A DNA stretch of 64,000 bases from Candidatus Uhrbacteria bacterium. GTDB taxonomy: Bacteria > Patescibacteriota > Patescibacteriia > UBA9934. The DNA lies in the NCBI GenBank assembly GCA_943350635.1, contig CALRAI010000001.1, positions 4,051 to 68,050 of the forward strand, in the 5' to 3' direction. This document shows, piece by piece, positions 35,621 to 37,183 of this stretch; within the stretch, counting starts at the first letter, position 1, and every line of letters starts with the position of its first letter. Both the position numbers and the translations under genes were made by a program. The notes under the pieces are model-generated. The model made no database searches. It saw only the letters and a program-made list of their open reading frames with translations, and had not been told where the DNA came from.

Positions 35621-36574
35621 CTATTTAAATGGCTTTTGAAGTTTTGATTGCACAACTTCGCTTATTTTATGGGCATCCCCGTGGCTCAACATGCCAAGAT
35701 ACGAGGATACGGATTCCTCTTTGCTCTCTGTTCCAAGATTATTCATCATTCTGCGTTTGGTGGTCGTACGAAGAACCCGATGATGCGGAAAATGCACCCA
35801 GCCTAGGAAATCAATTCCCGAGGCGATTGTGGCAATGGAGACTTTGTTTGGGTGCAACGCGAGGTGTAACCGTGACTCTAAAAATTCAGCGATCTGCGGC
35901 AGGAGATGTTCTAAATATTCTCTGCCTTCATGCAGGACGACAAAATCGTCGGCGTAGCGGATGTAATGTGCTGCCTTCAAATTGCGCTTTATGAAGTGAT
36001 CAAACACGTTCATGTAGATATTGACCAAAAGTTGGCTCGTAAGGTTACCGAGCGGAAGTCCGACGCCGGGCCTGCCGTCCGTGTGAAAACTCCCGATCAC
36101 TTCCGCGAGGAGCCAAAGAATATCTGTGTCGTTGACATGCCTTTTGATGACGTCGAGGAGAATCGCATGATCGATGTTGGCAAAGAACTTTCGTATGTCG
36201 CATTTCAACACCCAAGCGGTACGGGTGTGGTTTTTGGAAACCTTGGCGGCAAATTCTCGAAGACGATTGATTGCGCGATGCGTACCCCTCCCCTCGCGAC
36301 AGGAGTACGAATCAAAAATGAATTTACGATCGAAGAATGGATATAGGATTCGATAGATTGCGTGATGCAGGAGCCGATCACGGACGGTCGCTTTATGAAT
36401 ATCCCTTGGCTTCGGGTCGTTAATCTTAAAGGCATGGTATCCGCCGTGCCGGTAGGACCTATTGGCGAGGTCGCCGTGCAACGCGACGAGATTATCCATG
36501 AGGCTTGCCGCGAAGAGGGCAACGTCTTCCCGTTTCCTTTTTCCAGACAAAAACTCCTGCCAGGCGGCAAGCAA
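35621..36574 (-). CDS. diversity-generating retroelement reverse transcriptase
   Basis: RT motifs including YADDFVVL, and the DGR-specific LGNLTSQLLVNIY (GxxxSQ in place of group II QGxxxSP). 317 aa. TR/VR pair nearby. Confidence 0.85.
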   Translation of the reverse strand: MLAAWQEFLSGKRKREDVALFAASLMDNLVALHGDLANRSYRHGGYHAFKINDPKPRDIHKATVRDRLLHHAIYRILYPFFDRKFIFDSYSCREGRGTHRAINRLREFAAKVSKNHTRTAWVLKCDIRKFFANIDHAILLDVIKRHVNDTDILWLLAEVIGSFHTDGRPGVGLPLGNLTSQLLVNIYMNVFDHFIKRNLKAAHYIRYADDFVVLHEGREYLEHLLPQIAEFLESRLHLALHPNKVSIATIASGIDFLGWVHFPHHRVLRTTTKRRMMNNLGTESKEESVSSYLGMLSHGDAHKISEVVQSKLQKPFK

Positions 36575-36624
36575 ATTTTCAACAGAAATGATATCCTGAT
36601 ACGTACTATGGAGCCGCGCCCTGA

Positions 36625-36664
36625 TCTCTCTCTCTCTCTCTCTCTCTCTCTCTCTCTCTCTCTC
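36625..36664. repeat. (TC)20 dinucleotide microsatellite
   Basis: Seen directly in the sequence, between the RT start (36574) and the Avd-like ORF (36709). Confidence 0.95.
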
Positions 36665-36708
36665 GTGCCGGAAGCGCGTCGATTCTCCAGCGCGTCAAAG
36701 AGGGATAT

Positions 36709-37032
36709 TTGGTTTGGATGAACATTGCGCCGCATATTGCAAAGGGTGCGCGTTTTACGATTGGCGCCAGGATTGAAAGTAAGTTTCTCGACCTGTTGGA
36801 GTTGAGTTACGCCGCCTATTTTACCGACAAAGAAAAGAAGGTTGCAAAGATTGCCGAGTGTGTCTTCGTGCTCGATACGCTCAAGTTTCTCATCACCACA
36901 GCATGGGAAGGAAGACTGATAGCCAATAAGCAGTGCGAGGACGTTGCCAAAAAGCTGGACGAGATCGGCAAGATGTTCGGGGGCTGGAAGAAGAATCTCG
37001 AAAACCCTGAACGAAAAAACCGCGCCATGTAA
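36709..37032 (+). CDS. Avd-like four-helix-bundle protein (accessory variability determinant / 23S rRNA IVS protein family)
   Basis: …KFLDLLELSYAAY…LKFLITTAWEGRLI…EDVAKKLDEIGKMFGGW resembles the C-terminal two-thirds of TIGR02436-type proteins. TTG start in the ORF track (an ATG lies at 36718). Opposite strand to RT, TR and target. Confidence 0.45.
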   Translation: MVWMNIAPHIAKGARFTIGARIESKFLDLLELSYAAYFTDKEKKVAKIAECVFVLDTLKFLITTAWEGRLIANKQCEDVAKKLDEIGKMFGGWKKNLENPERKNRAM

Positions 37033-37046
37033 GCGCGGAATCAAGC

Positions 37047-37183
37047 ACTTTCGAAGACGGAAGACGAACTCATTGTTCGCATTCCACTTGTTCGTCGGCT
37101 TCGCCCAATTGTTGTTGAGCCACGACCCATCGTCATTGCGTTCCACGTTGAAGACGTTCGGGTTGCCGTCCGAGTCGGATTGC
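37047..37183 (-). repeat. DGR template repeat (TR)
   Basis: About 135 nt that aligns to 37507-37640. Every one of the ~17 mismatches is an A in TR (coding strand) versus C/G/T/A-change in VR. AAC/AAT-rich (NNNWAKPTNKWNANNEF). Confidence 0.85.

Follow-up and report, generated by a model that had tools for sequence, protein, structure and literature searches.

Introduction

Diversity-generating retroelements (DGRs) are especially common in bacteria of the candidate phyla radiation (CPR). To our knowledge, the regulation of DGR activity is largely unknown, and we know of nothing on the subject for uncultured CPR bacteria. In the DGR of Bordetella phage BPP-1 (mtd-avd-TR-brt), avd lies upstream of the template repeat (TR) in the same orientation, TR and brt are transcribed together, and a spacer RNA follows TR. 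The present work concerns a DGR found in a stretch of 64,000 nucleotides (nt) from a Candidatus Uhrbacteria bacterium (contig CALRAI010000001.1, positions 4,051 to 68,050), hereafter the window, within which all positions are counted. Like the BPP-1 element, this DGR combines a reverse transcriptase (RT) and Avd with a TR that is copied, by adenine mutagenesis, into a C-terminal variable repeat (VR); it differs in that avd lies in inverted orientation between TR and RT, that TR is followed by a terminator-like hairpin, and that a simple-sequence repeat, (TC)20, is situated in the proposed overlap of the avd and RT 5' ends. Comparison with related loci leads us to propose that this one repeat probably phases avd and RT together and serves as a heritable, reversible on/off switch of the mutagenic machinery.

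Switches built on short repeats offer several points of comparison. The opa genes of Neisseria carry (CTCTT)n in the region coding for the leader peptide, with one frame in three ON and most alleles OFF at any time. The repeat of the window is likewise pyrimidine-rich, has a unit that is not a multiple of 3 and sits just past an ATG in a dispensable N-terminal leader; unlike in opa, it would phase two overlapping open reading frames (ORFs) on opposite strands, and the genes encode a mutagenesis machine and not a surface antigen. At hifA/hifB of Haemophilus influenzae, (TA)n in overlapping divergent promoters sets the -35/-10 spacing. There too, one dinucleotide repeat between two divergent genes controls both, but for the DGR the evidence from the subclade of relatives with (GA)n on the RT strand points to control by reading frame, and promoter-type control is plausible only for RT in relatives with poly-G. 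In phasevarions, a repeat in a DNA methyltransferase ORF switches diversification across a population, the output being epigenetic regulation. The locus described here is similar in that a repeat in the ORF of a regulator would gate diversification, and differs in its output, the targeted hypermutation of one protein.

The nearest described DGRs have architecture B3, written TR-(avd)-RT, in which the reverse strand carries avd; they constitute 90% of the CPR DGR set of Wu et al. (2018, NAR, PMC5758913). The DGR of the window is of this CPR-type architecture (target/VR, TR, opposite-strand avd, RT) and agrees with such elements in gene order, orientation and adenine-specific TR/VR differences. 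The available text of the survey makes no mention of a repeat at the junction, of start codons or of an avd/RT overlap. Full-text searches that did not extend to Paul et al. 2017, the principal account of CPR DGRs, found no link between DGR elements and simple repeats, homopolymers, avd frameshifts or phase variation of their own. As far as checked, the junction repeat and the overlapping 5' ORFs are thus new to description.

The avd/RT junction of the window

The RT was identified by a match to RVT_1 (E = 1.7e-25, Pfam profile search) and by the DGR-type motif LGNLTSQ. Its called ORF extends on the minus strand from a TTG at 36574 to 35621 and is adjoined by the TR/VR repeats. TR (37048..37179) and VR (37501..37632), both on the minus strand, form a 132-nt pair of 86% identity in which 18 of 18 mismatches fall on TR adenines (A-to-N, minus strand). 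VR is the 3' end of the target gene (37483..39744, minus strand) and accordingly C-terminal in its product, a protein of 753 amino acids (aa) without a Pfam or NCBIfam match. On the plus strand, the ORF 36709-37032 matched PF22296 bAvd above the cut-off (E = 1.7e-13; 51.4 bits, cut-off 40) and NCBIfam NF033474 DivGenRetAVD below it (E = 1.1e-17; 64.2 bits, cut-off 80). The original prediction had placed RT, TR and target on the minus strand and had named this ORF as the only Avd-like one; the coordinates and the profile search agree with it, and the 64-kb window holds one Avd and one RT only. The nearest homologues of the RT are CPR RTs, each with an Avd next door; the closest belong to metagenome-assembled genomes (MAGs) of Patescibacteria/CPR, and Avd falls in the same clade as elements from Patescibacteria MAGs. 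Exact-sequence look-ups of the called RT and Avd of the window gave no identical entries, and hence no contigs from the same population.

Between the two genes lies (TC)20 on the plus strand, i.e., (GA)20 on the minus strand, at 36625-36664; this tract, predicted earlier at the same place, was recovered by Tandem Repeats Finder with 100% matches. No other dinucleotide run in the 64 kb reaches five units, and G/C homopolymers of at least 8 nt are absent from the window. The tract is free of stops in all six frames; in Avd it would be read as (Leu-Ser)n, in RT as (Arg-Glu)n. Its unit is not a multiple of 3, its length is above the instability threshold, and it is positioned between conserved ATGs and both gene bodies, as is characteristic of contingency loci.

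The plus-strand ORF 36362-36721 holds an ATG at 36608 which, at n = 20, is 2 nt out of frame with Avd. Loss of one TC unit or gain of two fuses this ATG to the Avd frame, in line with the earlier remark that the two frames are one unit apart. With n = 19 or 22, Avd has 140 aa from ATG 36608 and RT has 370 aa from an ATG at 36735 on the minus strand, neither with internal stops. With n = 18 or 21, Avd is out of frame and RT has 359 aa from a candidate second start, a TTG at 36698..36696 (minus strand), again without internal stops. At the observed n = 20, both Avd and RT are out of frame with their ATGs. The presumed ON form of avd (36608..37032, plus strand) would therefore comprise ATG 36608-36610, a short leader, the repeat and the Avd body up to the stop TAA 37030-37032; that of RT (35621..36735, minus strand) would comprise ATG 36735..36733, the extension MRRNVHPNQISLFDALENRRASGT, (GA)n and a body from about 36624 to the stop at 35621.

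Two further reading frames were seen here. At n = 20, the ORF from ATG 36608 stops at TGA 36719-36721, which overlaps ATG 36718-36720 (Avd Met14) as ATGA, and termination-reinitiation at this site may yield a truncated Avd in that phase. A minus-strand ORF of 326 aa (36205..37185) runs through TR, antisense avd, the repeat and out-of-frame RT sequence. It has no family matches of its own and can be explained as arising incidentally from the selected stop-free antisense frame together with the repeat and the out-of-frame RT sequence.

Conservation and length variation of the repeat

A search by RT similarity (58-85% identity) in metagenomes and GTDB genomes yielded 164 related loci; 145 had enough upstream DNA for their orientation to be scored, and 144 junctions entered the repeat census. 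Avd is located immediately upstream of RT on the opposite strand in 145/145 loci, so this orientation, at first thought unusual, is that of the published B3 elements. The junction, measured from the start of Avd helix 1 to the RT 'DIIS' motif, is 42-97 nt long and contains a simple repeat in 141/144 loci. On the RT-sense strand, the repeat is poly-G of 6-13 nt in 92 loci, (GA)5-20 in 43, (CTGG) with about 10-12 units in three, (GT)12-13 in two and (TTGCTGA) with about 11 units in one; three loci have no repeat. Units are thus 1, 2, 4 or 7 nt and never a multiple of 3, and none of the five repeat types brings a stop codon to the avd strand. On the RT strand, the 7-mer contains TGA, and the RT of that locus has its own ATG after the tract.

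By Avd similarity, the poly-G loci are nested among the (GA)n loci, and hybrid tracts occur in L095 and L019, which indicates that the type of repeat turns over and a repeat at the site is kept. Throughout 986 kb of flanking DNA, there were 16 G/C tracts of at least 8 nt and two (GA) tracts of at least 5 units, nearly all of them at the 5' ends of other RT genes. These observations support the view that CPR DGRs of type B3 conserve a hypermutable repeat as part of the element. Viral contigs scanned with a flank motif yielded nothing.

The length of the tract is polymorphic within four families of relatives. L071 has G10 where L073 has G8, with no other difference over 7,265 bp. A set of nine contigs that encode one and the same RT protein and are at least 99.6% identical (0-5 mismatches in 2.3-4 kb) have n = 9, 9, 10, 13, 10, 12, 12, 13 and 12. 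Among contigs with identical Avd, one set has n = 9 or 13 and another n = 7, 10 or 13, each at 0-1 mismatches. Short (GA)5 tracts are constant across 6-8 contigs. Two RT-defined contig sets, P0071 and P0060, are uninformative on length because the called RT includes the tract and identical proteins force identical lengths.

A second avd/RT junction or a tandem DGR copy of about 91% identity, each with its own poly-G tract, is present in L071 (1240-1800), L130 (at about 3404 and 5253) and L042. L151 has a scaffold gap (N run) together with a C41 run at its avd/RT junction (about 690-790), and the junction repeat evidently breaks or confuses some assemblies.

Candidate translation starts and antisense constraint

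The Avd homology of the window begins at 36679, ten codons upstream of the usual annotated start, TTG 36709. The Avd frame is open back to TGA 36622-36624, directly before the repeat, the body frame being open from 36625, and between repeat and body there is no canonical Avd start. Most loci of the (GA)n subclade likewise have no canonical Avd start between the repeat and codon q1. Avd codons q-1 to q10, upstream of the TTG, have entropies of 0.60, 0.33 and 1.03 at codon positions 1, 2 and 3, the same pattern as the gene body, so the codons before the annotated TTG evolve like coding DNA. An AlphaFold2 model of Avd (mean predicted local distance difference test score 88.6) is a four-helix bundle with helix 1 at residues 7-24, starting at the Ile at 36682 (q2). 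The database Avd forms of 104-107 aa are therefore predicted to be without half of helix 1; gene callers in this clade routinely shorten Avd to these lengths and misplace the RT start. A long form of Avd, M-x(4-8)-(SL)n-x-ASIL or with PPPP replacing (SL)n, was found in 37 of 120 among the homologues listed.

Other Avd starts were considered. TTG (q11) and ATG (q14) were ruled out as native starts, the upstream codons being coding-like and forming half of helix 1. A near-cognate ATT/ATC start at q2 leaves the conserved q-1 and q1, the upstream ATG and the open frame unexplained.

Each of the two proposed ATGs is the antisense of a codon in the other gene. ATG 36608 of avd is opposite an N-terminal His codon of RT, which is CAT in 116/116 loci, compared with 1118 CAT versus 763 CAC at other RT His codons. 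ATG 36735..36733 of RT is opposite Avd His19, which is CAT in 38/38 GA loci; in poly-G loci, His19 is CAT in 42 and CAC in 29, and RT there mostly has an ATG of its own. From ATG to repeat, the frame on the avd strand is stop-free in 40/40 GA loci (80% expected, p = 1e-4) and in 66/69 poly-G loci (63% expected, p = 1e-10), and the frame on the RT strand in 38/38 GA loci (36% expected, p = 2e-17); the expectations were derived from codon usage, and the p-values are optimistic as the loci are related and not statistically independent. On the RT strand of poly-G loci, the frame is stop-free in 33/86 versus 31% expected, which is not significant.

Codon choice within Avd follows the same pattern. 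TTA, CTA and TCA, which read as stops on the opposite strand, are used in 0 of about 95 codons at Avd Ser1, Leu3 and Leu11 (q1, q3 and q11), compared with 25% of Leu/Ser codons in the Avd body, and synonymous variation is suppressed at q6-q11 and q19 in the GA group only. No RT start codon is present between the repeat and the conserved N-terminus in 33/43 GA loci. All three repeat-less loci (L017, L101 and L144) have Avd in frame with its ATG, and in L017 and L101, which belong to the GA subclade, RT is also in frame with its ATG; with both genes in frame, these two amount to a locked-ON configuration.

A terminator-like hairpin after TR

Directly after TR, a terminator-like GC hairpin (37038..37020) with a T-run occupies 37010..37038 on the minus strand and overlaps the last avd codons; its stem is CCGCGC..GCGCGG, followed by T6. 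An equivalent hairpin with T5-6 comes after TR in 36/37 GA-type and 58/85 poly-G-type relatives, with stems that differ between loci and are each a self-complementary pair. The hairpin may be a terminator of the TR RNA or a structural part of the DGR RNA. Its conservation together with the T-run points to an end of TR RNA short of avd and to a separate promoter for RT nearby, which makes doubtful the earlier claim of a TR-RT transcript running antisense through avd.

A probable phase-variation switch

The mechanism we favour places (TC)20/(GA)20 within a region of about 130 nt in which the 5' ends of avd and RT would overlap on opposite strands, codon for codon. Translation of avd would begin at ATG 36608, with (TC)n decoded as a (Leu-Ser)n stretch leading into helix 1, and that of RT at ATG 36735 (minus strand), with (GA)n decoded as an (Arg-Glu)n stretch leading into the RT body. 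Since both ATGs are antisense to codons that the opposite gene reads in frame, avd and RT come into frame at the same n. In the window, n = 1 mod 3 (19, 22) would be ON/ON, n = 0 mod 3 would allow RT alone, from the TTG, and n = 2 mod 3, including the observed n = 20, would be OFF/OFF with neither gene in frame. If these ATGs are in use, out-of-frame alleles would be without Avd and RT, and if the population from which the window derives varies in n, slipped-strand changes of one unit would switch the machinery in a heritable and reversible manner. A slipped-strand switch that fuses and unfuses N-terminal sequence had been put forward in the original prediction and gains support from the conserved ATGs, the open frames and the length polymorphism in relatives.

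Whether this extends across CPR is, in our estimation, evenly balanced: the repeat in the avd/RT antisense overlap would then be a three-state switch with hypermutation ON only in a subpopulation, and most populations, including the one with n = 20 here, would be OFF and one slip from ON. If true, CPR bacteria with tiny genomes would gate a costly and risky mutagenesis stochastically, as bet-hedging, and not by sensing the environment. It would also be rare for one microsatellite to phase two genes on opposite strands, and a mutable switch would in effect govern a mutator.

Several observations speak against such a switch. The frames of 48 unique GA alleles are distributed at about 20:15:13, with no enrichment of the ON phase, which is present in 13/40 GA loci and only 13/69 poly-G loci and in 0/9 alleles of three polymorphic GA families. 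Hence, if the model holds, most sampled populations are OFF, or the genes are expressed in another way; a variant in which alleles are kept in frame ('always ON') is ruled out by these same numbers. The uniform phases fit a mostly-OFF switch as in many contingency genes, and they equally allow expression by slippage or another role of the repeat. Alternative starts weigh on the same side, as an RT ATG stands beside the repeat in 7/43 GA loci and an Avd TTG in about 30/69 poly-G loci, as does the relatedness of the loci behind the p-values above. Poly-G relatives moreover have a -10-like TAnnnT plus 7 nt plus ATG directly after the tract, so that poly-G may act on RT transcription there, still inside the avd ORF.

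These last observations bear on the possibility that the repeat acts on transcription from within the core of a compact bidirectional avd/RT promoter or from the 5' leaders, its length tuning the geometry of the promoter or the function of the leader, as a switch or rheostat, and the frames being irrelevant. TAnnnT is found directly after poly-G in 28/89 loci against a background of 1.6% (p = 5e-28), and 12 of these 28 have an in-frame RT ATG exactly 7 nt on, which is the arrangement of leaderless-mRNA promoters; the RT ATG of some GA loci is 5 nt past the tract, and both the RT promoter implied by the conserved terminator after TR and the uniform distribution of allele frames are in keeping with such a role. 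We nevertheless consider it rather unlikely, since it leaves unexplained why the antisense ATGs are invariant, why the frames leading from them to the repeat are free of stops, why antisense stops are avoided specifically in the GA group, and why every repeat unit lacks stops on the avd strand and has a length that is not a multiple of 3. A fixed spacer would also predict compensation of poly-G length by flank length, which is not seen (Spearman -0.10), and a sigma-70 consensus scan of the window gave no promoter-like site at its repeat. Promoter spacing for RT, the other possibility raised at the outset, may apply to the window but fits the RT side of the poly-G relatives better. The uniform phases could instead mean that the translated repeat is an attenuator, RNA-polymerase or ribosome slippage giving a small in-frame fraction from any allele and thus constant low Avd and RT. 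Although two out of three consensus alleles are not in frame, Avd and RT remain under coding constraint and the TR/VR differences are adenine-specific, and a 2-nt shift on a dinucleotide repeat should restore perfect codon-anticodon pairing. The length polymorphism at the DNA level is, however, abundant and enough for switching, and the in-frame state of repeat-less relatives implies that the in-frame product is the functional one, for which reasons we regard an attenuator as improbable.

Neutral expansion of a microsatellite in a decaying DGR, with avd and RT as pseudogenes at n = 20 and a repeat without a role, would account for an allele that is the longest among 48 GA alleles and leaves neither gene a usable in-frame start for a full-length product. 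It is difficult to reconcile with the retention of a repeat at this site in 141/144 loci over RT identities of 58-100% and several changes of type, with two ORFs that are otherwise intact and both restored by a single unit change, and with 18 clean adenine-specific TR/VR differences; we therefore think it very unlikely. An assembly or sequencing artefact, i.e., a mis-join or a miscounted repeat, seems hardly credible even in low-complexity DNA that is prone to miscounting, as the gap and C41 run of L151 illustrate, because more than 150 independent assemblies share the layout of the window and are collinear with it on either side of the repeat, and the 40-nt tract is well inside Illumina read length. 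We thus retain a frame switch shared by avd and RT as the probable function of the repeat.

A role of the repeat as a Shine-Dalgarno mimic was also considered and rejected, given that (GA)n should pair poorly with the anti-Shine-Dalgarno sequence and that the typical 13-nt spacing in poly-G loci would be too long. The succession of G-tract, TAnnnT, 7 nt and RT ATG was noted in poly-G relatives such as L094, L127, L045, L157, L147, L035 and L158, and its layout suggests that leaderless RT transcripts may occur in CPR bacteria.

Other features of the locus

The DGR has chromosomal neighbours, among them Mur ligases, a P-type ATPase and tRNAs. On the upstream side of the target gene, 39834-40433 and 41461-42825 encode a protein with a tRNA_anti-like OB fold (PF12869) and a ParB N-terminal domain fused to an N6/N4 DNA methylase. 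An AbiEii toxin-family gene is located just downstream of RT in L003 (1431-2093), the second-closest relative of the window, and in L203-L205, with no counterpart seen in the window.

An Rfam scan of 35000-40000 returned weak chance matches only. About 350 nt downstream of the RT stop, at 35226-35269, there is a perfect 20-nt inverted repeat with a 4-nt loop, which underlies a sub-threshold RNAI-like Rfam match (E = 0.02). Further away, the region 31371-32396 has a local GC content of about 58% and contains mirror-image ORFs of 329 and 330 aa on opposite strands, with a low-complexity translation rich in Arg and Ala.

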